DNA of 62,967 nt, filler included. It is 5 parts of 5 records of this genome, joined end to end, with 100 filler letters (N's around TTAATTAATTAA, not from the genome) between each part and the next. Parts side by side here need not be neighbours in the genome. Positions count along the whole stretch, not along the records: positions 39,346 to 62,967 come from DRR723986_7872; 4 more parts are not named here. One strand, 5' to 3'. The translations under genes were made by a program, and so were the position numbers. Under the pieces are notes generated by a model. The model saw only the letters and a list, made by a program, of their open reading frames with translations. It searched no databases and had not been told where the DNA came from. Shown piece by piece: positions 49,196 through 62,153 of this stretch (position 1 is the first letter of the stretch; every line of letters starts with the position of its first letter).

Positions 49196-50266
49196 TCAGG
49201 ACGCATGCATCAGATCAGCCGCGCCATGTGCACCAGCTGCCGCAGCCCGGAGTTTCCCTGCCATCCAGTCGAGCGACTTGTTCACACGCTCCACCGCATT
49301 GCGCTCCGCACTCAGCACGCTCTGCTCACCGCGCGGGAGATAGAAATAGGGGTTGGCCTCCCACAGCATGACACTGCCATCCGGACGGATGCTGTAGTCG
49401 ACTGCCGCAAAGTCCAGCCCGAGCGCCTGCACCGCCTGAACAAGGGTTCTGGCATGCAGCAGGTCGCTGTCAAAATAGGCCTTGTCTTCCCGGATCAGAT
49501 CCTCGAGCAGCCTGCGATTGTAGCCCAAGCGATGCCCCAGGCGCCGGCGCGGGCGAGCCTCCCGCTTCAGCAGGCAATTCGACAGCCCGACGACAGTACC
49601 TGAGGCAAAGAACAGGTGGCTCGGCATGACAGCATCGCCGAACACGAAAGCGCGGGCCTTGTGGTGGTAACGGGAAAACAGGCTGGAGGGATTTGCCTTG
49701 GCGGCGCGGTATTCCGACCGGATATCGAACAGCTGGATGACAGCAACAGGGAACACGCAGTCGCGCGCCGCACGCTCCACATCCGCCGCGCTACGGATAA
49801 TTCGGACATCCCGTTGGGCATGTTCGACATCCGAACGAAGAATACAGGTGCCGCCCAATTCCTTGCAGACCTGCGCCAGGCTGGAGGGCCTGTTGACGAT
49901 GCGGGCGCGCGCCGACGGCACGCGTTCCTGGTTCCAGATGGCTGCCTGGCGTGTCTTCGCCGTATTGCTCAGCGCTTCCGGACTATTGAGGACACGGATT
50001 TTATCGATGCGGGCAGCATTGGCGATGTCGACCGCTTCGGCGAAGCAATCGGGATATTTCTCTTTCAATGGATCGCCGAGCCAGAACATGACGAGGCCAA
50101 CGCCCGACAGATCGGGCGCAGCCGAACCTGTTTCATGACAGCGAATGCGCGCCGCAAGTTCCGGATCGGTTTCCCTCACGCGATCCATGAACACGCCGCC
50201 TGTCGGCACGTCGCGGCCACGCCCCGGTCCATGAACAACTATGAGAATGTCGCCCTGTGTGCCCAT
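49196..50266 (-). CDS. ATP-grasp-like protein
   Basis: LNSP.AL.N..K and LGLDFAAVDY...DG....WEANP motifs; start uncertain. Confidence 0.7.
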   Translation of the reverse strand: MGTQGDILIVVHGPGRGRDVPTGGVFMDRVRETDPELAARIRCHETGSAAPDLSGVGLVMFWLGDPLKEKYPDCFAEAVDIANAARIDKIRVLNSPEALSNTAKTRQAAIWNQERVPSARARIVNRPSSLAQVCKELGGTCILRSDVEHAQRDVRIIRSAADVERAARDCVFPVAVIQLFDIRSEYRAAKANPSSLFSRYHHKARAFVFGDAVMPSHLFFASGTVVGLSNCLLKREARPRRRLGHRLGYNRRLLEDLIREDKAYFDSDLLHARTLVQAVQALGLDFAAVDYSIRPDGSVMLWEANPYFYLPRGEQSVLSAERNAVERVNKSLDWMAGKLRAAAAGAHGAADLMHAS

Positions 50267-50494
50267 CGTCCTGCTTGCGCCTTCCTGTGCCAATACGTTC
50301 CGGAACCCTGCTCCGGAGGCCTTTTGCCAGGACCATTCGCAACTTTCTTGCCAGTTGAGTGGCGACGCCCTGATGGCGTGAACAGGCGTAATTATTGAAG
50401 ATTGCGGGATTGTACCTGGTCCCGCCGACAGGACTTAACCGACCTTAACCGAATCGCCGGCACGCTTCCGTCATCCCTGAATGAGGAGGCTGAT

Positions 50495-50800
50495 ATGTCC
50501 ATCAAATGGGTTCGGCGGCGCGCACATGTCCGGCGTCTGGCATCGGGGGACTGTGTCCAGGTTGCGCCCAGCTGGGTACCCGTGGAGGACAAGGGCGGCG
50601 ATGCGAAGGGCCCATCTTTCCACTCGGCCTGCCCGGTTTGCGATGCCCCGATCCTCAGTCTGCGCATGCCAAATGGCGGCTGGGTCCATTTTGAACGCGG
50701 CATCGGCCTCTCCCGCCTGAAACACCCATGCTTCTATATCGGCGAAGATATTGCGAATGTCCGCGACGAGGCGACCGGCGACCTGTTCGGCGACGCCTGA
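50495..50800 (+). CDS. Small hypothetical zinc-ribbon protein (101 aa)
   Basis: GAGGAGG RBS; CPVC...HPC; C-terminal TGDLFG. Confidence 0.75.
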   Translation: MSIKWVRRRAHVRRLASGDCVQVAPSWVPVEDKGGDAKGPSFHSACPVCDAPILSLRMPNGGWVHFERGIGLSRLKHPCFYIGEDIANVRDEATGDLFGDA

Positions 50801-50836
50801 AAAGGAAATCGCGCAGGTGACGGGCACCTGCGCGAT
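50801..50836 (-). terminator. Intrinsic terminator downstream of prx
   Basis: 12-bp stem ATCGCGCAGGTG/CACCTGCGCGAT followed by TTCCTTTT on the minus strand. Confidence 0.8.
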
Positions 50837-50880
50837 CCTGGCTGCCCTCAAGGGAGGGGGTCAGAAGGGCAGCGGTCTCA

Positions 50881-51513
50881 TCAGGCCTTCACGTCCGTGA
50901 GGCGCAGATAGGGACGAAGGGTTTCCCAGCCCTGCGGGAACAGGGACTTGGCTTCCTCATCGCCGATAGACGGCGGAATGATCACTTTCTTGCCCGGGAC
51001 CCAGTCTGCCGGCGTCGCGATCTTGTTCGCGTCGCTGGTCTGGAGGGCATCGATCACGCGCAGGATCTCGTCGAAGTTCCGGCCAACGGCCATCGGATAG
51101 GTCATCGTCAGGCGGATCTTCTTGTTCGGATCAATGATGAAGACCGACCGCACCGCCTGGGTGTCACTTTGATCCGGATGGATCATGTCGTAGGTCTGAG
51201 CAATCTTGAGATCCTTGTCGGCGACGATCGGGAATTCCAGATTGGTGTTCTGGGTGTCGTTGACGTCCTCGATCCATTTGATGTGCTCTTCCACCGTGTC
51301 GGTCGACAGGCCAAGCGGCTTCACATTGCGGGCAGCGAACTTGTCCGCCAGCTGAGCGGTGCGGCCCATTTCCGTGGTACAGACCGGCGTGAAATCAGCC
51401 GGATGGGAAAAGAAAAAGACCCAGCTATCGCCTGCCCAATCATGGAAAGAGATCTCTCCTTTCTGGGTGGCAACGGTAAAGTCCGGGGCGATATCTCCGA
51501 TACGCAATGACAT
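50881..51513 (-). CDS. 1-Cys peroxiredoxin (Prx6 family)
   Basis: FSHPADFTPVCTTE, GRNFDEILR and TPADW. Confidence 0.95.
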   Translation of the reverse strand: MSLRIGDIAPDFTVATQKGEISFHDWAGDSWVFFFSHPADFTPVCTTEMGRTAQLADKFAARNVKPLGLSTDTVEEHIKWIEDVNDTQNTNLEFPIVADKDLKIAQTYDMIHPDQSDTQAVRSVFIIDPNKKIRLTMTYPMAVGRNFDEILRVIDALQTSDANKIATPADWVPGKKVIIPPSIGDEEAKSLFPQGWETLRPYLRLTDVKA

Positions 51514-51593
51514 GGCAGTATTCCTTTCGTGAATTTGGCGATCTGGTTTCCGGCCTCGGCCAAGCTGATTGCCTTGCCGCTTCCTGAAACTTA

Positions 51594-51615
51594 TGTGTTA
51601 CTTTATATAACACTT
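51594..51615. promoter_or_regulatory. Palindromic operator copy 1 (GTGTTA-N7-TAACAC), upstream of prx
   Basis: Perfect dyad at 51595-51613. Confidence 0.7.
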
Positions 51616-51806
51616 TTCAAACTCATTCTGCTGATGCCTGCCATAGGAAGAATTTATGGGGAAACGCATGGTGCGGATATTGCCAAAAATCGACCTATTG
51701 CTCTGTATTTTATAAATAATACCGCGACGACAGGCGCCCAGAATGGCTGGGAGATGCCGGTCCACGTAGAGTTACGGATTGACAATGCCCTCTGCGCTCG
51801 CAGAAT

Positions 51807-51827
51807 AGTGTCAATAATATTCACACT
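51807..51827. promoter_or_regulatory. Operator copy 2 (AGTGTCA-N7-TCACACT), upstream of the Rrf2 gene
   Basis: Same spacing and near-identical half-sites to copy 1. Confidence 0.65.
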
Positions 51828-51881
51828 TTTATGTGTCATAGACAGGCTGGGTGGCGGACCAACCGGGAGGAAACAGGACAC

Positions 51882-52340
51882 GTGCGACTAACGGCCTATA
51901 CAAACTATGCGCTCCGGACGCTGATGTATTGCGCGCTGCACCCGAACCAGCTGGTGCGTATTCAGGATGTTGCCGATGCGCATGGCATCTCCAAGGCTCA
52001 CCTTCTGAAGGCAGCGCGTCAACTGGGCCAACTCGGCTATCTGGAAAACATCCGCGGCCGCGCTGGTGGTGTGCGCCTTGGACGTCCGCCGGAACGCATT
52101 ATCATCGGGGAAGTCGTGCGTCATACTGAAGGCGATCTCGAAGTCGTCGAATGCTTCAACCCGATAACCAACACCTGCCCGCTGATTGGTGTCTGCAAGT
52201 TCAGCACATTGTTCCGCGCAGGCCTGCGTGCCTTCTTTGCCGAACTGGACAAGGTGACTTTGGCCGACATCGTCGCCAACGGCCCGGTATTGCTTGAACG
52301 GCTGGAATCCAACCGGGAAGCTCTCGCGACAGGCTGCTAG
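51882..52340 (+). CDS. Rrf2 family regulator, NsrR-like with three Cys
   Basis: T.YALR.L, RGR.GG and ECF.....CPL...C; GTG start with RBS. Confidence 0.93.
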   Translation: MRLTAYTNYALRTLMYCALHPNQLVRIQDVADAHGISKAHLLKAARQLGQLGYLENIRGRAGGVRLGRPPERIIIGEVVRHTEGDLEVVECFNPITNTCPLIGVCKFSTLFRAGLRAFFAELDKVTLADIVANGPVLLERLESNREALATGC

Positions 52341-52840
52341 TCCGCCGCGTCATCCTTCACTTCGACGACCTTGTAGCTGCCATGGCAGGCGGCGCATTTT
52401 CCCATGATGCCACTGACAGACAGCTGGATCTCGTCCATCTCCGCGGTCATGGCGATACCTGAGATGTCGCCGAAATCCTGACGCATGGATTCGCCGATCG
52501 ACCGGAAGCCGTCCGGGGCGTTCGCCTGTACGGCCTGCCCTTGACCATTGCCGCGGCGGAGGCCGGCCGCAACATCGCGAATGGTTTCCCGATCTTCCTC
52601 GGCAATGGCCGCTTCGATGGTCTGCAGCCCCTGAAGGAAACCAAGCATCTCGGCGCTGATATGGGCACGGTCGTCCGCTGTAAAATACAGTGCCAGGCGG
52701 CCATCGGGCGTACGTTCCGGCCGTGCCGTTTCAGCCGCCAGTTCGCTGAGGTCCTCATGCGTAGACATGAAACGCATCAGGCCGACACCCATGATCAGTC
52801 CGAAAAAGATCCATCCAAAGACTGCCAGCGTCTTGTTCAT
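52337..52840 (-). CDS. Membrane-anchored class II cytochrome c (c'-like)
   Basis: N-terminal TM helix, helical body and a near C-terminal CAACH heme motif. Confidence 0.8.
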   Translation of the reverse strand: MNKTLAVFGWIFFGLIMGVGLMRFMSTHEDLSELAAETARPERTPDGRLALYFTADDRAHISAEMLGFLQGLQTIEAAIAEEDRETIRDVAAGLRRGNGQGQAVQANAPDGFRSIGESMRQDFGDISGIAMTAEMDEIQLSVSGIMGKCAACHGSYKVVEVKDDAAD

Positions 52841-52856
52841 GTCTGCAGCGCTCCTT

Positions 52857-53315
52857 TCAGAAGCTCAGAACGGTCGTGCCCTCTGCCGTGAAGGCAGAGG
52901 CAATATCGGGCGGCGTGGCAACCCCGATACCGTCTTCGAGCGCCTCGGCGCCAAACGGGCGATTGGGGAGGTAGATGGCACACACATCTACCTTCACGCC
53001 TTCGGCCTTCAGCGACCGCAACAGGCCAGCCGGACTGGCGCCCTTGGGCTGAAGCGGCGCCAAAGCCTGCGGCGGCGGCGATTTCAGAGCGAGATCGCCC
53101 GCAGCGCTGCACAGCAGTATCTGCGGTGTCACGCCTTTCGCCATCGCCGCCTTCGTCAGCACCAGCGCCATCAATTGCGTCTCTGCATCGCCGCTGGTCA
53201 GGACGGTGAGCATCGGACGGCCAGCGTCCCCGGCCGCAGAGGCTGGCGGCGTGTCAGGAACCGCCGCACACGCCGGCAGCACCAAAGCTGCACCCGCGAC
53301 AAGCAATCCGCGCAT
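52857..53315 (-). CDS. DsrE-like exported (lipo)protein
   Basis: Signal/lipobox-like LPAC; VLTS......MAL.L, LLCSAAG and VDVCAIY pattern; TGATG overlap with cydX. Confidence 0.65.
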   Translation of the reverse strand: MRGLLVAGAALVLPACAAVPDTPPASAAGDAGRPMLTVLTSGDAETQLMALVLTKAAMAKGVTPQILLCSAAGDLALKSPPPQALAPLQPKGASPAGLLRSLKAEGVKVDVCAIYLPNRPFGAEALEDGIGVATPPDIASAFTAEGTTVLSF

Positions 53316-53434
53316 CAGTCGATCTCCAGATCGTTCTCACCCGCTTCGCCCATGGACACTTCGTTCCACATGGCATTGAGGATGCCGAAGGTCAGCGCGA
53401 GGCCGAGGCCAAGAATCCAGCTGAAATACCACAT
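53315..53434 (-). CDS. cydX: Cytochrome bd oxidase small subunit CydX (39 aa, absent from the ORF track)
   Basis: MWYFSWILGLGLALTFGILNAMWNE...; directly downstream of cydB. Confidence 0.95.
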   Translation of the reverse strand: MWYFSWILGLGLALTFGILNAMWNEVSMGEAGENDLEID

Positions 53435-53464
53435 ATCGATTTCCTTCCGCTCAGTAAGCGTGAA

Positions 53465-54607
53465 CTAGTAAGTACCTGGGGCGTTGGCTTCTTCCGTGGT
53501 CAGACGACCAAAGAGGACTTTGAACACCCAGGCCGTATAGGCCAGAATTATCGGAACGAAGATCACCGTCACGATCAGCATGATGAACAGGGTGAGATGG
53601 CTCGAGGAGCTGTCCCACACTGTCAGGCTGGCATTCGGATTGATCGAGCTTGGCAGGATGAACGGGAACATCGAGGCACCAACCGACGCCACGATACCGG
53701 TCGCCGCCAGCCCGGAGCCGATCAGAGACAGCGACGTCTTGTTTTTCAAACCAATGAAAGCAAGGACCGACCCGATGAAGCCGAGCGCCGGTGCGAGGAT
53801 CATCCACGGATATTTGCCGTAATTGGTGAGCCAGGCGCCCGCTTCCACAACGACTTCCTTGCGCAGCGGATTGGCGACGCCGTTCGGATCCATATCCGTC
53901 ACGATGCGATAGCCCATGCCGGTCACAGCGAGCCAGATACCCGCAGCGGCATAGAATACGATGACCAGAAGGGCCGCGATCTGACCGAACTTGGCGGCCC
54001 GGTTCATGACGTGCCCATGCTCGATCTTCACGACGAGCCACGATGCGCCGTGGACCACCAGCATGGCGACGGACGCCAGACCGCACAGCAGGGCGAACGG
54101 ATTCAACAGGCCGAGCAGACCGCCCGTGTAGGTTGCCCGCAGCGTGCGGTCGATATCGAACGGGACACCTTGCAGCACATTGCCGAGCGCGACACCAAAG
54201 ATCAGGGCAGGCACAAAGCCACCGACGAACAGCGCCCAGTCCCAGGAGCTGCGCCAGGTGGCGCTTTCCCGCTTCGACCGGTACTTGAACCCCACGGGCC
54301 TCAGGATCAGCGCAGCCAGCACCACGAACATGGCGAGATAAAAGCCAGAGAAGCTGATTGCATAGACATAAGGCCAGGCAGCAAATAGGGCGCCGCCGCC
54401 CGTGATCAGCCACACCTGGTGGCCTTCCCACATCGGGCCGATGGAGTTGATCACGAGGCGGCGTTCCTTGTCGTTCTTTGCCACGAAGGGCAACAGAGAC
54501 GCGACACCGAGGTCATATCCGTCCGTCAGGGCGTAGCCGATGAGCAGTACACCGACGAGGCCCCACCAGAGGACTTTCAGCGTTGCATAGTCGAGAGGAA
54601 GTTCCAT
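53465..54607 (-). CDS. cydB: Cytochrome bd ubiquinol oxidase subunit II
   Basis: DGYDLG, P.WEG.QVW and LRPVGF.YR. Confidence 0.96.
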   Translation of the reverse strand: MELPLDYATLKVLWWGLVGVLLIGYALTDGYDLGVASLLPFVAKNDKERRLVINSIGPMWEGHQVWLITGGGALFAAWPYVYAISFSGFYLAMFVVLAALILRPVGFKYRSKRESATWRSSWDWALFVGGFVPALIFGVALGNVLQGVPFDIDRTLRATYTGGLLGLLNPFALLCGLASVAMLVVHGASWLVVKIEHGHVMNRAAKFGQIAALLVIVFYAAAGIWLAVTGMGYRIVTDMDPNGVANPLRKEVVVEAGAWLTNYGKYPWMILAPALGFIGSVLAFIGLKNKTSLSLIGSGLAATGIVASVGASMFPFILPSSINPNASLTVWDSSSSHLTLFIMLIVTVIFVPIILAYTAWVFKVLFGRLTTEEANAPGTY

Positions 54608-54619
54608 TGTCCTGTCCTC

Positions 54620-56224
54620 CTATTTGTCAAACTGGATGGTGCGCGGACGGGCCGGCACGGCGTCATTGTGGGTATCGGGACCTCCGCCGCCCACGCTCTG
54701 AGGCAGGATGCGAGCACCGGGGCCGAGCTTTACGGCACGGATCATCAGGGTGATCTCGATCACCGCCAGCGCGCCGTAGAGCAGCGTGAAACCGACCATG
54801 GTCATGATCACCTGCGTCGCCGACAGGCTGGAGACCCCCATGAAGGTCGGCAGCACGCCGTCGATCACCCAGGGCTGGCGACCTGTTTCAGCAAGGATCC
54901 AGCCAAGCTCCGCCGCGATCCAGGGCAGCGGGATGGAGTAGAATGCCAGATACAGGAACCAGCGCGGCACTTTGCGCTTCAGGCTGACGAAGTAGAAAGC
55001 CACGGCGAATACCGCGATGAACAGGAAGCCAATCCCGGCCATGAAACGGAACGAAAAGAACGCCATGGCCACATTCGGAACAGTGTCCATGGCGGCTTTC
55101 TCGATCGTTGCACGGTCGGCGGTTGCCGGATCATCGACATACCTCTTCAGGAGCATGGCATAGCCGAGATCCGTTTTGGTCTGTTCGAAGATTTCGCGTG
55201 CCTCGACGTCGTTCGGGTTCTTATTCAGCGCTTCCACTGCCGTGTAGGCGCGGATCCCGTTTTCGATCCGGTCTTCCGCAACGGCGACGAGCGGCAGGAT
55301 ACCTTCCACTTCGCCATCCAGCGAACGGGTCGCGATCAGGCCGAGCACATATGGAACATGGATGGCATATTCGGTTTTGTGTTCCGCCTGGTTGGGGATG
55401 CCAATCAGCGTCAGTCCGGCCGGAGCCGGCTCCGTTTCCCACATGGCTTCCAACGCGGCGAGCTTCATCTTCTGGTTATCTGTCAGGGCATAACCGCTCT
55501 CGTCACCCAGAACGACAACTGACAGAGCCGACAGGAGGCCGAAGCTGGCCGCAACAGCCATCGAACGCTTGGCGAGGCCGAGATGCCGATTCTTCAGCAC
55601 GTACCAGGCAGAAATGCCGAGGACGAACACAGACGCTGTCACGTACCCTGCGCTGACCGTGTGAACGAACTTGGCTTGCGCGACCGGATTGAACAGAACT
55701 TCCATGAAGTTGGTGACTTCCATCCGCATCGTGTCCGGATTGAACTCGGACCCGACCGGGTTCTGCATCCAGCCATTGGCGATCAGGATCCACAGAGCCG
55801 ACAAGTTGGAGCCAAGCGCCACAAGGAAGGTGACAAGCCAGTGCGCCGGGCGGGACAGCTTGTCCCAGCCGAAGAACATCAGGCCGACCAGCGTCGCTTC
55901 CAGGAAGAAGGCCATCAGACCCTCAATCGCCAGCGGGGCGCCGAAGATGTCGCCAACATAATGCGAATAATATGACCAGTTCATCCCGAACTGGAATTCC
56001 ATCGTGATACCGGTCGCAACGCCGAGCACGAAGTTGATACCGAACAGCGTACCCCAGAACTTGGTGGTGCGTCGCCACACCTCCTTGCCGGTCATCACAT
56101 AAGCGCCTTCCATGACCACCAGGAGCATGGAAAGCCCAAGCGTCAGCGGCACGAAAAGGAAATGGTACATAGCTGTCAGCGCAAATTGCCAGCGCGACAG
56201 GTCAGCGACTAATAGTTCAGGCAT
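54620..56224 (-). CDS. cydA: Cytochrome bd ubiquinol oxidase subunit I
   Basis: HFLF, EFQFG.NW, Q..KLAA.E and GRQPW. Confidence 0.97.
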   Translation of the reverse strand: MPELLVADLSRWQFALTAMYHFLFVPLTLGLSMLLVVMEGAYVMTGKEVWRRTTKFWGTLFGINFVLGVATGITMEFQFGMNWSYYSHYVGDIFGAPLAIEGLMAFFLEATLVGLMFFGWDKLSRPAHWLVTFLVALGSNLSALWILIANGWMQNPVGSEFNPDTMRMEVTNFMEVLFNPVAQAKFVHTVSAGYVTASVFVLGISAWYVLKNRHLGLAKRSMAVAASFGLLSALSVVVLGDESGYALTDNQKMKLAALEAMWETEPAPAGLTLIGIPNQAEHKTEYAIHVPYVLGLIATRSLDGEVEGILPLVAVAEDRIENGIRAYTAVEALNKNPNDVEAREIFEQTKTDLGYAMLLKRYVDDPATADRATIEKAAMDTVPNVAMAFFSFRFMAGIGFLFIAVFAVAFYFVSLKRKVPRWFLYLAFYSIPLPWIAAELGWILAETGRQPWVIDGVLPTFMGVSSLSATQVIMTMVGFTLLYGALAVIEITLMIRAVKLGPGARILPQSVGGGGPDTHNDAVPARPRTIQFDK

Positions 56225-56310
56225 GGTCGTCTCCCGACCGCAAATCGGCGGTCTCTGGTCTACATGACGGCACAAATATGCCTGCCGTATTTAACAAACG
56301 ATAGCGCAAA

Positions 56311-56333
56311 AAGTCGCATGCAATATAACACTT
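56311..56333. promoter_or_regulatory. Operator copy 3 (AAGTCGCA-N7-TAACACTT) between divergent cydA and cydD
   Basis: Right half-site identical to copy 1, same N7 spacing. Confidence 0.6.
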
Positions 56334-56353
56334 ATAAATCCTAATTACCCAAT

Positions 56354-58045
56354 ATGTCGGAAGCCACTGAAATATCTGGGAAAAAGCGGACGCGTACTGC
56401 CCTGAAATTATGGGCCGGCAGATCGCAGCCGGCGGTCAGTCTTGGGCTTGCCTGCCAGCTGTTGGCGGTAGCCGGCTGGATCGCAATCGCATGGGGCATC
56501 GGACACGGCGTCGCCGCCATCGCTGTGGGTCAGCCGGCAGGCCCCGGCCTGCTGATCGCCGCAGCAGGCGTCCTGGTACGCGGTGTTTCAGGTTGGCTAG
56601 GCGATCTCCTGCTCGCCCGCGCCGGACAGACCATGGTCAACGCCGCCCGCGCAGACATCTTCAAGACCCTGTCGGACGCCGGGGCCGGCTGGCTCGGCGG
56701 CGCCGACGCGGGAACACGCACTGCGCAGATTATCGATCGCACCGCAAAACTCGAAGGTTACGCATCACGCTGGCTTCCCGGAAAGCGCCTCGCCGTTGCC
56801 GGGCCGGTGATCATTCTGATCGCTGTGGCGACTCAGACCTGGCTGTCCGCCGTCCTTCTGCTGGCATCCGTCATGGTGTTGCCCGTCTTCATCTGGCTGA
56901 CCGCCAGCGAAACCGCGGCCCGGGCCAAGGCGCAACAGGCTGCTCTGGACCAGCTTTCCGGAGCATTCCAGTCCCGCGCCGCCCAATCCGGCCTGATACG
57001 GGCGTTCCGTGGAATCCGGCGCGAGAGCGCAAACCTCGAAGAAGCTTCCCTCCAGCTGCGCGATCGCACGATGGCCATCCTGCGCGTGGCCTTCCTGTCC
57101 ACTGCCGTCCTGGAATTCTTCGCATCCGTCTCCATTGCGCTGGTCGCCGTCTATATCGGATTCAAGCTGTTGGGCGTGTTCCCCTTCGGCACTGGCGAAA
57201 CGCTCACACTCGCGGAAGGCCTCACAGCGCTGATCCTCGCGCCGGAATTCTTCAGCCCCATCCGCAAACTCTCCAGCCTGCACCATGATCGCGCAGATGC
57301 GACTGCGGCTGCGGAGATGCTCTCGGATTGGCTGGAACGCCGGGAAGACGACCCGGTGAAAAAGCTGGCGCCGCTCCCTCAGGCCCCTGTCATCGTATTC
57401 GATGAGGTGGTCCTTGGCTGGGGTGATGACCGCCTGGCTGTCTCTGATCTTTCTTTCGAAGCAGAACCAGGGAAGGTGACAACGCTCGCCGGTCCATCCG
57501 GATCCGGAAAATCCACGGCCCTGCTGGCTCTGATTGGGCGCGCCCGATTGGTCAGCGGACAGATCCGCGTCGGCGCGCACACACTCGCGCCCGGCGAAAG
57601 CCTTGCGGACTCCATCGCCTATATCGGTCAGACGCCCTGGCTGATGGAAGGCACGATCCGGGAAAACATTGCCATCGCCCGGCCGGACGCCAGCCCGATT
57701 GAGATCGAGGAAGCGGCGACTCAGGCGGGCATTCTGGACTTCGCTGACGAAAGCCGCGGCGGACTGGAGCAAACGCTCGCCCGTTTTGGCGCGGGGCTGT
57801 CCGGCGGCCAACGCCAGCGGATTGCCCTTGCCCGCGCTCTATTGCGCAATGCGCCGATCATCCTGATGGACGAGCCGACAGCCCATCTGGATCCGGATGC
57901 AGAACAGGAGTTTCTTTCCAAACTGGAAGACCTGGCAAAAGGCCGGACGCTTTTAGTGGCGACTCACTCTGACACCCTTATCGCCGCTTCCGATGCGGTC
58001 ATTAGGCTGCAACCACAGCAAATGCCGGAGGATGCAGAATGTTGA
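56354..58045 (+). CDS. cydD: ABC exporter subunit CydD
   Basis: TM.ILR.AFLS..VLEFF, LILAPEFF.P.R, GPSGSGKS and LSGGQ. Confidence 0.94.
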   Translation: MSEATEISGKKRTRTALKLWAGRSQPAVSLGLACQLLAVAGWIAIAWGIGHGVAAIAVGQPAGPGLLIAAAGVLVRGVSGWLGDLLLARAGQTMVNAARADIFKTLSDAGAGWLGGADAGTRTAQIIDRTAKLEGYASRWLPGKRLAVAGPVIILIAVATQTWLSAVLLLASVMVLPVFIWLTASETAARAKAQQAALDQLSGAFQSRAAQSGLIRAFRGIRRESANLEEASLQLRDRTMAILRVAFLSTAVLEFFASVSIALVAVYIGFKLLGVFPFGTGETLTLAEGLTALILAPEFFSPIRKLSSLHHDRADATAAAEMLSDWLERREDDPVKKLAPLPQAPVIVFDEVVLGWGDDRLAVSDLSFEAEPGKVTTLAGPSGSGKSTALLALIGRARLVSGQIRVGAHTLAPGESLADSIAYIGQTPWLMEGTIRENIAIARPDASPIEIEEAATQAGILDFADESRGGLEQTLARFGAGLSGGQRQRIALARALLRNAPIILMDEPTAHLDPDAEQEFLSKLEDLAKGRTLLVATHSDTLIAASDAVIRLQPQQMPEDAEC

Positions 58046-59685
58046 ATCTCTGGCGCCTTCTCGGCCGGCCCGCGAAAATCCGTTTTGGCCTGGCTCTGCT
58101 CCTCTCTGCCCTTGCCGGCGCGTCGAGTATCGCCCTGCTTGGCCTGTCCGGCTGGTTTCTGACCGCCGCTGCGATCGCGGGCTCTGCCGGAGCGGGATAT
58201 GTCTTCAACCACCTCTATCCGAGCGCTGGAGTACGAGCAGCTGCCTTCTCCCGGGTCCTGACACGCTATGGCGAACAACTTGTCGGCCATGATGCGACAT
58301 TGAGCCTGTCGGCGCGCTTGCGCCCCCAGCTCTTTACCGCGAGCGCAGCCACCCAGCGTGGCTTCACCTCCATGCCCGCCCGTGAGCTCAGTATGCTGAT
58401 CGATGATGTCGATGCTGCAGAGGCGGGCTTCCTGCGTGTCTTCAGCCCGGCTGCGGCCGTCATCGCCGGTATTGCTGTCGCGCTTGGATTTGTCTTCGCA
58501 AATGACTGGGTCAGCGGGTTCCTCGCGCTTGGCGCCTTCCTGTGCACGGGCTGGATTTTCCCTGCCATGACCGTCCGCCGATCCCACCTGGCCGCCGAAG
58601 CTCACGCCCGGCAGGCAGAACTGGCGCGGGAGCAAACGGCCCGTCTCGTCGAGAACGCCATTGAACTCGATATTCTTGGCGCCATTGGCCGTGAGACAGA
58701 AGCGGCACAGACCGCACTGGAACAGCAGGTCGCCACCCGCGATGCCATCGAGGCACCCTACCGCAATCTCGGCACCTTCACAGCGACCGTCGGCCTTGCG
58801 CTGGCGCTGCTCGTCCTGTGGCGTGCCGCCGGACCGCAGTCTGGAATCGCGATGGCAACCGGCGCAGCCCTCGCCCTGATGGCGGCGTTCGAGTCGACGG
58901 GTGCGATGCTGAAGGTTTTCGATGCTCGTGCCCGCTCCGGCGTTGCGGCAAACCGCCTGGCTGCGCGCCTGCAGACAAGTGAAGCGAGTTGGGATCCACG
59001 GCTCGAAGCGGCACCTGTGCTAGACACGCTCTTCCCTCTCAAAGCGACCAGTCTCATGGCTCAGGCCGCGCCCAATGCGCCGGTAATCGGCCCGCTAAGT
59101 TTTACATTGAAACCGGGAACACTGTTGCAGCTGATTGGTTCATCGGGCAGCGGCAAGACGACGGTCGCCGAAGCACTCATGCGCCTTCATCCGGTCTCGC
59201 CCGGCATGCTGCAGTATGGCGACGTTCCCGCAGACACCGCGCGTATCGCAAGCGTTCTGGCCCATATCGCGATCAGCCCGCAAATGCCGGCTTTCCTGCC
59301 TGGCACACTCGGCGACCAGATGCGCCTTGCAGCGCCGGCAGCCACGGATGACGACATCTGGAACGCACTCCGTATCGCCTGTGCCGAGACATTCGTCACT
59401 GCCCGGCCGGAAGGCCTGAGCACCAGGTTCGGTGAAGACGATTTGCCCTTTTCCGGCGGCGAGTTGCGCCGCATCGGCCTCGCCCGCGCCCTGCTGGCAA
59501 AACCTGAAATCCTGATCCTGGACGAGCCCTTCGCCGGGCTGGAGGCTGAACTCGCCCAGCGCCTTGCTGCAAACCTCGATGACTGGGCAGCACAGGCACC
59601 CCGCGCCCTAATTGCACTGACCCACAAACCCTTGGGGGCGCCTTTCGAACACCTCGTCTCGGAACAGGTGCTCATTCAGTCCTGA
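58039..59685 (+). CDS. cydC: ABC exporter subunit CydC
   Basis: LLGLSGWF, RYGE.L..HDAT, GSSGSGKT and FSGGE. Confidence 0.94.
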   Translation: MLNLWRLLGRPAKIRFGLALLLSALAGASSIALLGLSGWFLTAAAIAGSAGAGYVFNHLYPSAGVRAAAFSRVLTRYGEQLVGHDATLSLSARLRPQLFTASAATQRGFTSMPARELSMLIDDVDAAEAGFLRVFSPAAAVIAGIAVALGFVFANDWVSGFLALGAFLCTGWIFPAMTVRRSHLAAEAHARQAELAREQTARLVENAIELDILGAIGRETEAAQTALEQQVATRDAIEAPYRNLGTFTATVGLALALLVLWRAAGPQSGIAMATGAALALMAAFESTGAMLKVFDARARSGVAANRLAARLQTSEASWDPRLEAAPVLDTLFPLKATSLMAQAAPNAPVIGPLSFTLKPGTLLQLIGSSGSGKTTVAEALMRLHPVSPGMLQYGDVPADTARIASVLAHIAISPQMPAFLPGTLGDQMRLAAPAATDDDIWNALRIACAETFVTARPEGLSTRFGEDDLPFSGGELRRIGLARALLAKPEILILDEPFAGLEAELAQRLAANLDDWAAQAPRALIALTHKPLGAPFEHLVSEQVLIQS

Positions 59686-59690
59686 AAGGC

Positions 59691-60902
59691 TCAGACTTCT
59701 TCGATCCGCGTTTTCGCCCGGCGCACATTCAACCAGACCAAAGCGATCACGGCAGGCACGCTAACCGCCTGGAGAACAGGAACACTCACCACCGTGTGCG
59801 GCAGCGATTTGATCAGCACGCCAATCAGGCCGACGACATAGTAGGAAATCGCCGCGACAGAAAGCCCTTCGACAGCCTGACCGAGATGCACCTGCTGGCG
59901 TGCACGCTTTTCCATCGAGACCAGCAAGGCCTGATTGTGTTCCTGGGAAGCCTGCTCCAACCGCGTCCGCGCCAAGGCCATGGCTTCCGACAGGGTGACT
60001 GATACGTCTGCGATCCGCCGGTCAAAGGCAGAAACGGTCTTGATTGCGGGCGCCAGGCGATGATCGACGAAGCCTTTCAGGGTCTGGCGCTGACCGATCG
60101 GTGTTTCTGCCAGGCTCGCCAGCCGGTCTGATACAATATCATAGTAGGCTTTAGACGCAGCCATGCGGTAACGGAGGTCATCCCGCAGGGCGCCGACTTC
60201 AGCCAGCAGCCCGGAAATCTCTCGGATCGTGTCGCCGAGTTTCTCGCCTTCGGACGCGCTCAAGGCGCGCATGGCCAGCCCGGTCCGTGCTTCAAGAGAC
60301 TGAAGCGCCGGTGTCGCTTGCCGAACCACCGGCAGGCCAAGAAGCGATGCCATCCGATAGGTTTCCAGATCGACCAGCCGTTTGACCAGCCTCCCGCGTG
60401 CGAAAGCGTCCTCGAATGCTCCAGATAATGTGTAAACGACCATCTGATCGGCTCCGACCTGAAAATCGGTCGCCACCTCAACCCCGGCAAACCGGGCAGC
60501 TCCGCCGAATATACGGCCTGGTCCGAAAACACTTGCCATACCACTCCATCCAGCGGGCCGGATCAGCACCCGCGCCCCAGCCAGCTGCCGTCCCGGACAG
60601 AGCGCGATGATGCGCAAGCTCTCGGCGTCAGGTGGCTCATCACCCAGCCATGTGACCGAGACAAACTCTGTATGCCGCTCAATTCGCAATTGCCCGCCGG
60701 CAAGATCCAGAACCTTGTGTCTGCATAACGGGTCGTATGGCGCTTGCCAGTCCGCCAGATCTTCCGGCAAGTCGTACAACACCCAGTTCCATACTTCAGA
60801 AGTCTCTGACTCGATGGCGAGCGGCGGACGCGCATGTGCCTCGGCCTGAATGTCGGCACGCTCGGGGTATTGATCAAAGACCGGTCGGTTCGTTGTGCTC
60901 AT
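59691..60902 (-). CDS. DUF3422 family membrane-anchored protein
   Basis: E.HARP, ERHTEF, GRL..RL..LETYR and VEGLSVAAISYY. Confidence 0.85.
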   Translation of the reverse strand: MSTTNRPVFDQYPERADIQAEAHARPPLAIESETSEVWNWVLYDLPEDLADWQAPYDPLCRHKVLDLAGGQLRIERHTEFVSVTWLGDEPPDAESLRIIALCPGRQLAGARVLIRPAGWSGMASVFGPGRIFGGAARFAGVEVATDFQVGADQMVVYTLSGAFEDAFARGRLVKRLVDLETYRMASLLGLPVVRQATPALQSLEARTGLAMRALSASEGEKLGDTIREISGLLAEVGALRDDLRYRMAASKAYYDIVSDRLASLAETPIGQRQTLKGFVDHRLAPAIKTVSAFDRRIADVSVTLSEAMALARTRLEQASQEHNQALLVSMEKRARQQVHLGQAVEGLSVAAISYYVVGLIGVLIKSLPHTVVSVPVLQAVSVPAVIALVWLNVRRAKTRIEEV

Positions 60903-61031
60903 CGAACACCTCCCCGGCCAGCCAAAGCAGGACACGCACCGTCACGCTGACTGGCCGTCAGCTCACTTTACGTTTTTGTAAAATATAATCTGAGCAATCA
61001 CCATGCGACGGATTGCGCAGCACCCGGAAAA

Positions 61032-62153
61032 TCACGCTTTCGATGAATTTCGCATTCGAATCAGGCGACGGATCGCCAGAGAAATTCCAGTATATACAAG
61101 GACAATCGCGGCAATAGAAGCCAGCCCTGCCAGCGTCTGCCCGATGAGACCATAGATCTCTCCGGTGTGCACAAACCGTAGATAACGGCGTGCTTTCGAC
61201 GCCGGGCTGGAAACATCGCCAACTGGCGCCCCGATAAAACCGGAACCATCACGCAAGACACTCACGCTGCGCTGTTTCGACGCCTGGGTGCCATTGCCCC
61301 AATCGACCGAGAGATCGAGTGTTGTTGCATTCGGCTCGGGAAGCGTAATGGAAACACGGCGCCAATTGTTAAATGGCTCGGTAGCCTGTGCGACCAGTTG
61401 ATCAAGAGGCTGGACCTCCCCGACCAGCACCGGTGACGCTGCCGCCGCAACCTCATGCCCCGCACGTTGACCGCCCGGCGTTTCACCGAACGCCGCATAG
61501 ACCAGCTTGTTTGCCCAACTGTAGGAGAAGACGGCGCCCGACACGATGATCAGGAAAAGCGGTATGAAGCTCCACGCGGCGAGTACATGGTGCCAGTTGT
61601 AATGCCGCGCCTTCGCATGTGTCAGGCCGCGCCGGAAAAAGAGCTGCATCTTCACCAGCGGCCACTTCCATTTGCGCGGCCACCAGAGCACAACGCCGGA
61701 AATCAGGAGCGCCCCAAAAATCAAACTTGCTGCACCATTCACAGCAGCGCCCAATTCATTGCGCCCGCCTGTGAAAGCTAGCCAGCGATGAATGCGCATG
61801 ACACGGCCGAAGAAGGCTTCAGTCTTTTCGCCCGCCCCTTCGAGCACTTCGCCTGTATACGGATCAAGCAGTACTGAGTCCCGCCGCCCCTTGGACAGCG
61901 TCACGACAGCCGAGGCATCCCTCTGAATTATTAAGGTGTTTCCGGGAGCCCCACCCACCGCTGTAGCCGCTTGTGAGAGCGCCTCAATGCTAAATGGCTC
62001 AGCGCCGGCCGGCGCCTCAACTGCCGCGTTCTGGGCCGCGGCAACCATCTGGCGCTCATAGGTGAGCAGCACACCTGTTACAGACATCAGCAGGATCAGC
62101 GCTCCTGCCGCGAGCCCCATGACAAAGTGCGCCCAAAAGAAAATACGCCGCAT
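61032..62153 (-). CDS. PepSY-associated TM helix protein
   Basis: W.H...GL, DPYTG, HRWL, SG..LWWP, WH and HTGE. Confidence 0.9.
   Translation of the reverse strand: MRRIFFWAHFVMGLAAGALILLMSVTGVLLTYERQMVAAAQNAAVEAPAGAEPFSIEALSQAATAVGGAPGNTLIIQRDASAVVTLSKGRRDSVLLDPYTGEVLEGAGEKTEAFFGRVMRIHRWLAFTGGRNELGAAVNGAASLIFGALLISGVVLWWPRKWKWPLVKMQLFFRRGLTHAKARHYNWHHVLAAWSFIPLFLIIVSGAVFSYSWANKLVYAAFGETPGGQRAGHEVAAAASPVLVGEVQPLDQLVAQATEPFNNWRRVSITLPEPNATTLDLSVDWGNGTQASKQRSVSVLRDGSGFIGAPVGDVSSPASKARRYLRFVHTGEIYGLIGQTLAGLASIAAIVLVYTGISLAIRRLIRMRNSSKA

Follow-up and report, generated by a model that had tools for sequence, protein, structure and literature searches.

The window analysed here is a stretch of 62,967 nt made of five joined parts, and coordinates count along the whole of it; positions 39,346-62,967 are record DRR723986_7872. 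This record carries a gene for a putative Rrf2-family repressor among genes for cytochrome bd and a peroxiredoxin. The order is prx6 (minus strand), rrf2 (plus strand), a cydA-cydB-cydX-DsrE-like-cytochrome c'-like run (minus strand) that converges on rrf2, and cydD-cydC (plus strand), divergent from cydA (Table 1). The peroxiredoxin, with its 1-Cys Prx C-terminal domain, Rrf2, CydA, CydB, CydX and CydD all score above curated cut-offs, and CydC scores below. The DNA comes from the marine genus Hyphomonas: its Rrf2 protein shares 98% identity with the one in Hyphomonas sp. CY54-11-8. Three copies of a palindromic operator lie before these genes, and we are highly confident, on sequence grounds, that they mark a real regulon.

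Table 1. Operators, promoter elements and genes of the locus (window coordinates)
Feature	Position	Strand	Details
Operator 1	51593..51615		79 nt upstream of prx6 start; overlaps inferred -35 and spacer; motif score 29.2
Operator 2	51806..51828		starts on last base of rrf2 -10; motif score 18.2
Operator 3	56311..56333		86 nt from cydA start, 20 nt from cydD start; motif score 27.4
rrf2 promoter, sigma-70 type (TTGACA, 16 nt, CAGAAT)	51779..51806	+	only promoter found in 50700-56500; shuffles average 2.1
prx6 -35 (TTGAAA), inferred	51615..51620	-	from position and conservation, between OxyR-like box and operator 1; missed by promoter scan
OxyR-like four-part LysR box	51621..51657	-	42 nt upstream of operator 1; 10/16 matches in window
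RegA/SpdR-like element	56302..56318	-	one perfect half TGCGAC, 5 nt, one degenerate half; overlaps operator 3, just upstream of inferred cydA -35
prx6, 1-Cys (Prx6-type) peroxiredoxin, 210 aa; predicted target	50881..51513	-	NCBIfam PRK13189 231 bits (cut-off 211); Pfam AhpC-TSA and 1-cysPrx_C
rrf2, putative repressor, 152 aa	51882..52340	+	GTG start; Cys91/Cys99/Cys105, Asn8, helix SKAHLLKAARQL; Pfam Rrf2
Membrane-anchored cytochrome c'-like protein	52337..52840	-	CxxCH near C-terminus; last gene of cydA run; weak match: Pfam Cytochrom_C_2 21.6 bits (cut-off 26.5), PDB E 0.11
DsrE/DsrF-like protein, possible sulfur carrier	52857..53315	-	signal peptide-like N-terminus; Atlas top match 0.90 'DsrE/DsrF-like'; rank 6: PF02635 on 31% of members; no Pfam match
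cydX	53315..53434	-	TIGR02106 53.3 bits (cut-off 31.6)
cydB	53465..54607	-	TIGR00203 456 bits (cut-off 117)
cydA, bd-I type	54620..56224	-	Pfam Cyt_bd_oxida_I 575 bits
cydD	56354..58045	+	TIGR02857 507 bits (cut-off 435)
cydC	58039..59685	+	best match TIGR02868 264 bits, below cut-off 329; directly behind cydD

The original prediction named three 19-mers as copies of one site, and their letters and coordinates are exact in the window. The dyads extend 2 bases further on each side, giving a 23-bp operator, AAGTGTYA-N7-TRACACTT. Operators 1, 2 and 3 have 1, 3 and 3 mismatches to AAGTGTTA-N7-TAACACTT, and the next best position in the window has 5. A palindromic Gibbs sampler was then applied to 30 upstream regions from distant loci, in which Rrf2 is at most 82% identical. 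It returned AAGTGTnATnTnAnATnACACTT, of width 23 and information 20.4 bits (~8.0 in three shuffles). When the window is scanned with this de novo motif the three operators rank 1-3, with the next site at 7.9. With the training-set background they score 24.9, 24.7 and 14.4 and the next site 5.8. The ranking is therefore neither due to chance nor circular. The sites are also conserved at orthologous loci: identity in the operator arms is 0.95-0.97, compared with 0.75-0.86 in the spacers and ~0.69-0.70 across the whole intergenic alignments.

Genome-wide specificity was assessed in genomes of relatives. With up to 2 mismatches allowed, 10 of the 15 matches in whole genomes fall at this locus. For a refined pattern, so do all seven perfect matches in five genomes and 13 of the 22 with at most 1 mismatch. 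Because the best genome-wide matches concentrate here, the regulon appears to be small and local. Five matches elsewhere (L043, L044, L051, L052 and L056) were considered as extra members and rejected, lying before unrelated genes or inside open reading frames (ORFs).

The operator follows its target genes when they move or are exchanged. It is retained before prx6 where that gene has moved behind cydC (L018, L019), and before a Cio-type cydA that replaces the bd-I type (L008, L009, L011-L015, L021); the prx6 site of L008 is poor. It also follows the regulator. Motif scores before cydA are 23.1-28.3 in all 11 loci of the subclade and no higher than 8.4 in 30 other cydA promoters. These controls are best-matching loci from 80 genomes, 47 of them with cydA: 26 promoters come from genomes with no match to the regulator at E 1e-40, one from a genome with only an Asp8 NsrR, and three from sister subclades. 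For 50 of the control genomes, absence of the regulator means that it does not appear among the homolog matches listed. In genome G448 the N-terminal part of CydA is 92% identical, yet there is no clade Rrf2, only an Asp8-type protein, and no operator. That protein (L166) differs in the spacing of the third Cys and in its helix (NHLAKIMQRL), and ends after 136 residues. The proposed regulon of prx6, rrf2 and cydAB/cydDC is thus supported by the sites, their conservation and their co-occurrence with the subclade, and would also cover cydX and the DsrE-like and cytochrome c'-like genes. The further claim, that the local three-Cys Rrf2 controls this module through its own operator, agrees with a site that tracks the regulator and is gone where the regulator is missing. 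We regard the local Rrf2 as very probably the cognate factor of these operators.

The positions of the sites suggest how the repressor may act. Operator 2 is in a repressing position because it starts on the last base of the rrf2 promoter -10, and we infer negative autoregulation of rrf2. The TTGAC of the rrf2 -35 is invariant in all eight aligned loci. An extra conserved half-site (TGTCA-like) lies just downstream of operator 2, at 51831-51838, and may serve a second dimer. At prx6, 15 of 17 promoters have the OxyR-like box in a constant register. It agrees at 10-13 of 16 positions with the OxyR consensus (ATAG-N7-CTAT-N7-ATAG-N7-CTAT, which sits immediately before the -35), but may instead be a site for a different LysR-type factor. 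Its summed score over nine loci was reached by none of 20,000 shuffles, and all five relatives have an OxyR-like gene, scoring below the enterobacterial cut-off. At cydA, the imperfect half of operator 3, GTCGCA, is itself conserved. It abuts the operator in Cio-type loci and persists in G448, where there is no operator. The same letters form one half of the Caulobacter SpdR site, CTGCGAC-N5-GTCGCAG (PMC4830024). A genome-wide search for the SpdR-type motif in five Hyphomonas genomes gave one match per genome, below the control. The proposal that GTCGCA is a RegA-type activator site, which the repressor would block, is weak because full sites are nearly absent in these genomes. The promoters are probably shared with other regulators, OxyR-like at prx6 and RegA/SpdR-like at cydA/cydD. 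FixK/FNR control of the window cydA was rejected, there being no FixK/FNR box in 50800-56500. Such a box (TTGAT-N4-ATCAA) occurs in 6 of 13 bd-I-type control promoters, and it and the Rrf2 operator look like alternative control modes of cyd.

The regulator is a member of the Rrf2 superfamily (Pfam PF02082, 109.8 bits, cut-off 30; TIGR00738, 98.8 bits, cut-off 73.3). Its AlphaFold monomer has the winged helix and the dimerisation helix, and the top Foldseek match is Streptomyces coelicolor NsrR (7B0C; E 1.2e-9, 40% identity), the nearest solved relative. The Cys loop of the model is unreliable (predicted local distance difference test, pLDDT, ~50-60) and uninformative on ligation. In the alignment, Cys91, Cys99 and Cys105 match C93, C99 and C105 of S. 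coelicolor NsrR and are invariant in all 16 rows, as is Asn8. Among the 120 homologs listed, residue 8 is Asn in 88 and another residue in 1, with 31 unparsed. NsrR has Asp at this position, the ligand that nitric oxide (NO) displaces (PMC11672702; PMC11138216). The predicted ligand set, three Cys and Asn8 with no fourth protein ligand, is instead that of RirA, in which Asn8 renders the cluster labile and an N8D change stabilises it (PMC10510648). An open, labile fourth iron is predicted here because the three Cys and Asn8 are as in RirA.

None of the named families accommodates the protein. IscR identity was rejected (45.9 bits of a 207.55 cut-off), with Ser108 at the position of the IscR His ligand, three residues after the third Cys, and with cyd and prx6 as neighbours. 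The NsrR equivalog model gives 114.5 of 182 bits, though this model is enterobacterial and may miss true alphaproteobacterial NsrR. The best NCBIfam score is for RirA, but at 138.6 bits it is below the cut-off of 193, and reference RirA-named proteins score 208 and 211; the protein also falls outside the RirA clade. These references came from the protein set, genome samples having given one in 151, below the cut-off. In quick trees with Shimodaira-Hasegawa-like approximate likelihood ratio support (SH-aLRT; no bootstrap), the proteins with Asn8 group together as one clade (41 of 86 rows, support 96; in a second tree 27 of 56 rows, 96). Asp8 NsrR (91) and the RirA-like rows (100) form groups separate from it, and two of the RirA-like rows score above the RirA cut-off. 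Because the trees have no outgroup, the clade is placed nearer to neither. The 86-row tree leaves out L013, L015, L026, L029, L036, L038, L041, L092, L094-L096, L106 (duplicates, a mis-framed row and a distant row) and L119. From its sequence, the window Rrf2 looks like neither NsrR nor RirA but like a member of a third, undescribed-looking clade, with the RirA ligand set and NsrR operator geometry. Clade members come from Hyphomonadaceae, Parvularcula, Sphingopyxis, Filomicrobium, Methylocella, Chelativorans and Rhodobacterales; some are plasmid-borne. High-score matches (E < 1e-70) were found in 13 of 301 genomes of the order.

The operator has the 8-7-8 layout of the NsrR box and differs from it at half-site positions 4-6. 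The published NsrR consensus is gATGyAT-N5-ATrCATc (PMC1274295), and the 23-bp NsrR operator has a central 7 bp that the protein does not contact in the NsrR-DNA structure (PMC9338935). The statement that the motif is unlike the NsrR consensus holds, in that the best NsrR-box match upstream of the window rrf2 has 7 mismatches. Related proteins use the same layout with other letters. Asp8 NsrR relatives carry AAGATGYA-N7-TRCATCTT. A subclade with the helix SVHHMVKIAN carries AACTTGYA-N7-TRCAAGTT, also in trans in G621. A Rhodobacterales subclade carries AAGnTATA-N7, a weaker motif (nine regions; 17.0 bits, ~10.6 in shuffles). Recognition helix and operator sequence thus change together across four groups. 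Two observations were made on related regulators. At L058, L062, L063-L065 and L070 a hybrid half-site, AAGCAATAT or AATCAATAT, is paired with a normal one ~45 nt upstream of the regulator gene and probably overlaps the -10. At L063, L064, L065 and L076, canonical Asp8 NsrR genes with NsrR boxes adjoin alternative oxidase genes, which suggests NO control of the alternative oxidase.

Against this background the likeness to known Fe-S (iron-sulfur) regulators is partial. With NsrR, a [4Fe-4S] NO-sensing Rrf2 repressor (S. coelicolor structures 5N07 and 7B0C), the window protein and its sites share the fold, the three-Cys motif, the AAG...CTT ends, the 23-bp operator with a free central 7 bp, a small regulon and, as predicted here, autoregulation. 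Unlike NsrR, it has Asn8 in place of the fourth ligand, the helix AHLLKAAR rather than NHLMKVxH and the half-site AAGTGTYA rather than AAGATGYA; it is predicted to control cytochrome bd and Prx6 instead of globin or NnrS, and its clade is separate. With RirA, a three-Cys [4Fe-4S] iron/O2 sensor of Rhizobiaceae and relatives, it shares the three Cys and Asn8. The operator is different, however, and the regulon is local and without iron-uptake genes. FixK/FNR control has the same target operon elsewhere.

We next compared gene neighbourhoods. Genes within 7.5 kb were counted at 25 clade loci and 30 Asp8 loci. Cytochrome bd is nearby at 18 of the 25 clade loci, prx6 at nine and a DsrE-like gene at eight, whereas none of the three is near any Asp8 locus. 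SQR, PDO, YeeE or SulP genes are nearby at 8/25 clade and 2/30 Asp8 loci (p 0.03). In Hyphomonadaceae with Cio-type bd, an SQR-PDO-SulP-YeeE-ArsR cluster lies behind rrf2. In plasmid records from five species cydAB always adjoins Rrf2, and three also have a yeeE-sqr-sulP-MBL-rhodanese island; the Neotabrizicola, Paracoccus and Chelativorans plasmids carry prx-cydAB, rrf2 and the sulfide island together. An SQR of this type is present in 11 of 26 clade genomes and 4 of 34 controls (p 0.014). NO markers (globin, NnrS and DUF1971; hmp, hcp, norB and ytfE were not queried) are near none of the 25 clade loci and 17 of the 30 Asp8 loci, and by these markers the NO-defence genes linked to NsrR are missing here. 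The original prediction had offered NO, sulfide/persulfide or peroxide as signals. NO is the least supported of these because the NsrR ligand Asp8 is Asn and no NO markers lie near the clade loci. At L090, L203 and L204 a palindrome, GTGAC-N3-GTCAC, stands beside the Rrf2 site between prx and rrf2, with a Crp/Fnr gene behind rrf2. The DsrE-like gene of the window is missing at the matching place in several close relatives (L001, L002, L005, L007, L010), so it is an optional operon member.

These data suggest the following model. An Rrf2 homodimer would bind the 23-bp dyad at three places and repress four units: prx6, rrf2, the run from cydA to the cytochrome c'-like gene, and cydDC. By analogy with RirA, its [4Fe-4S] cluster would be held by three Cys and leave the fourth iron open; the holo form would bind DNA and let go of it when the cluster is attacked. 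The least secure step is the trigger; gene context suggests that it may be sulfide or reactive sulfur species that the cell meets while oxygen is present. Derepression would then supply an oxidase that withstands sulfide, the exporter needed for its assembly, the 1-Cys peroxiredoxin and the DsrE-like protein. Control of the SQR/PDO enzymes would fall to other regulators, of the ArsR or Crp/Fnr type. The same promoters are probably also subject to activation, OxyR-like at prx6 and RegA-like at cydA, for which Rrf2 would be the gate. There are precedents for the signal. In Acinetobacter, sulfide induces cydAB, which is itself sulfide-resistant (PMC7315123), and the kinase NreB senses sulfide through an Fe-S cluster that has three Cys and a labile sulfur as ligands (PMC13478379). 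Sulfide or reactive sulfur is our tentative choice of main signal, held at somewhat less than even confidence. With slightly more reserve, we consider it possible that these proteins make up a third clade next to NsrR and RirA, widespread and in part carried on plasmids. In its members the open iron of a three-Cys [4Fe-4S] cluster would itself detect sulfide or reactive sulfur, and the protein would switch respiration to sulfide-resistant cytochrome bd.

A number of observations weigh against this model, some against the regulon and others against the signal. The expectation that the motif is not frequent at random held at up to 2 mismatches, where most matches are at the locus, but not at 3, where genome-wide matches are no more numerous for the pattern than for its reversed control (10-23 and 8-31). 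Judged by the earlier 19-mer alone the third site is weak, one of 7 window positions with 3 mismatches. There are also exceptions. The clade member at L099/L126 (~70% identical) lacks the operator, and neither bd nor prx6 lies nearby. None of the marker genes is found near L022, 4 mismatches are present in the rrf2 sites of L017-L019, and residue 8 is Thr in one plasmid member (L202). The neighbour markers, NO markers included, were drawn from the same loci, and the p values for neighbours and SQR overstate because kin are not independent. SQR/PDO alone is not significant (7/25 clade and 2/30 Asp8 loci, p 0.06). This SQR is missing from 15 of the 26 clade genomes, including the six closest relatives (G001, G002, G406, G438, G553, G628). 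All seven SQR/PDO cluster regions scanned lack the operator (best score 0.4), which rules these genes out as regulon members. Finally, Cio-type cydA stands beside SQR, SulP, PDO or YeeE in control genomes that have no regulator (L152, L153, L154, L156), so it may be the oxidase, and not the regulator, to which the sulfur genes are tied.

The same regulon and repressor could instead respond to general oxidative damage of the cluster by peroxide, superoxide or O2, worsened by low iron, much as the three-Cys cluster of RirA degrades faster in O2 (PMC6748827). We consider this unlikely, though it deserves more weight than the other alternatives. The targets and neighbours include prx6, cytochrome bd, katG (2/25 loci), a ferritin-like DUF2202 gene (8/25), Dps and bacterioferritin, and the lack of SQR in the closest relatives fits it too. 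A second peroxide sensor would be redundant, however, because prx6 already has an OxyR-like box; a plain O2 sensor would leave the oxidase on throughout aerobic growth, and the DsrE-like gene and sulfide islands would go unexplained. A divergent NO-sensing NsrR, with the module as a nitrosative-stress defence (an NO-tolerant bd oxidase and an NO-binding cytochrome c'), is improbable. Fe-S clusters react with NO in general, the nearest solved relative and the operator geometry are those of NsrR, JGI gives the label 'nitric oxide-sensitive transcriptional repressor' to 11 of the 120 homologs listed, and 8/25 loci have a cytochrome c'-like gene. That cytochrome c' match is below its cut-off, though, and the absence of Asp8 and of the three NO markers speaks against NO. 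So does genome G506, which holds both a clade member and an Asp8 NsrR, the latter with an NsrR-like box upstream. The automatic NO-sensing labels on some clade members are probably wrong.

It is very unlikely that the protein is a RirA-type iron sensor, which would give up its labile iron when iron is short and so derepress the module. Asn8, the RirA model as best NCBIfam score and the ferritin-like neighbours would fit, but the protein lies below the RirA cut-off and outside its clade. The RirA-box, TGA-N9-TCA (PMC1698941), differs from the de novo motif, whose perfect matches are found only at the bd/prx6 locus and not before iron-uptake genes. No iron-uptake genes are among the targets, the best sites being local, and inducing a heme oxidase under iron shortage is counter-intuitive. 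Equally slight is the chance that the sites, though genuine, serve a different factor encoded elsewhere, with rrf2 merely one of its targets. Co-occurrence is no proof of binding, other conserved elements overlap the same promoters, and Crp/Fnr and ArsR genes adjoin Rrf2 in some islands. Against this, the site is gone in genomes that lack the regulator, each of four groups pairs its own recognition helix with its own site sequence, and the 23-bp width and uncontacted 7-bp centre of the site match the NsrR-DNA structure.

Our preferred reading, a sulfide-responsive Rrf2 repressor of cytochrome bd, shares its proposed signal with several known sensors: SqrR/BigR, CstR, FisR and Bacillus licheniformis NreB. 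BigR-like ArsR genes even occur in the same islands. SqrR, BigR and CstR are dithiol sensors without Fe-S clusters. NreB resembles the predicted clade protein in its cluster, but it is a PAS kinase and the cluster is [2Fe-2S]. None of these sensors is an Rrf2 protein, and the predicted targets here are the oxidase and Prx6, not SQR/PDO. A literature search found no published Rrf2 repressor of cytochrome bd and Prx6; subscription journals and RegPrecise were outside its scope. No look-alike sequence turned up in the index of the wider scan. For rirA homologs outside Rhizobiales the role is given as unknown, with some linked to nitrosative genes, in passages that do not mention 'cyd' (PMC1698941). 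The list of Rrf2 functions in a 2024 review names no sulfide sensor or oxidase regulator (PMC11672702), R. sphaeroides RSP_3341 represses napEFDABC (PMC4344238), and the sensing of sulfide by Fe-S clusters is called a largely unexplored subject (PMC13478379). Sulfide induction of cytochrome bd is known in several bacteria, and the clade supplies a protein, an operator and a predicted four-unit regulon with which Fe-S sensing of sulfide can be tested, in marine bacteria that are harmless and can be cultured. Because it combines the RirA ligand set with NsrR DNA geometry, the clade Rrf2 also tests whether residue 8 sets the NsrR- or RirA-type signal. If the proposal is true, the subclades form a natural series in which helix and operator co-change within one geometry.

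Three further features flank the module. Beside prx6, a 101-aa ORF with Cys/His motifs (50495-50800, plus strand) has no Pfam or NCBIfam match and is 87-99% conserved in close relatives. A 365-aa ORF (49196-50293, minus strand) has no family match and is syntenic in close relatives (71-94%); it is ATP-grasp-like by eye only. Behind cydC, on the opposite strand, no operator was seen at 59691-62153 (minus strand), where several relatives have DUF3422 and PepSY-TM genes.

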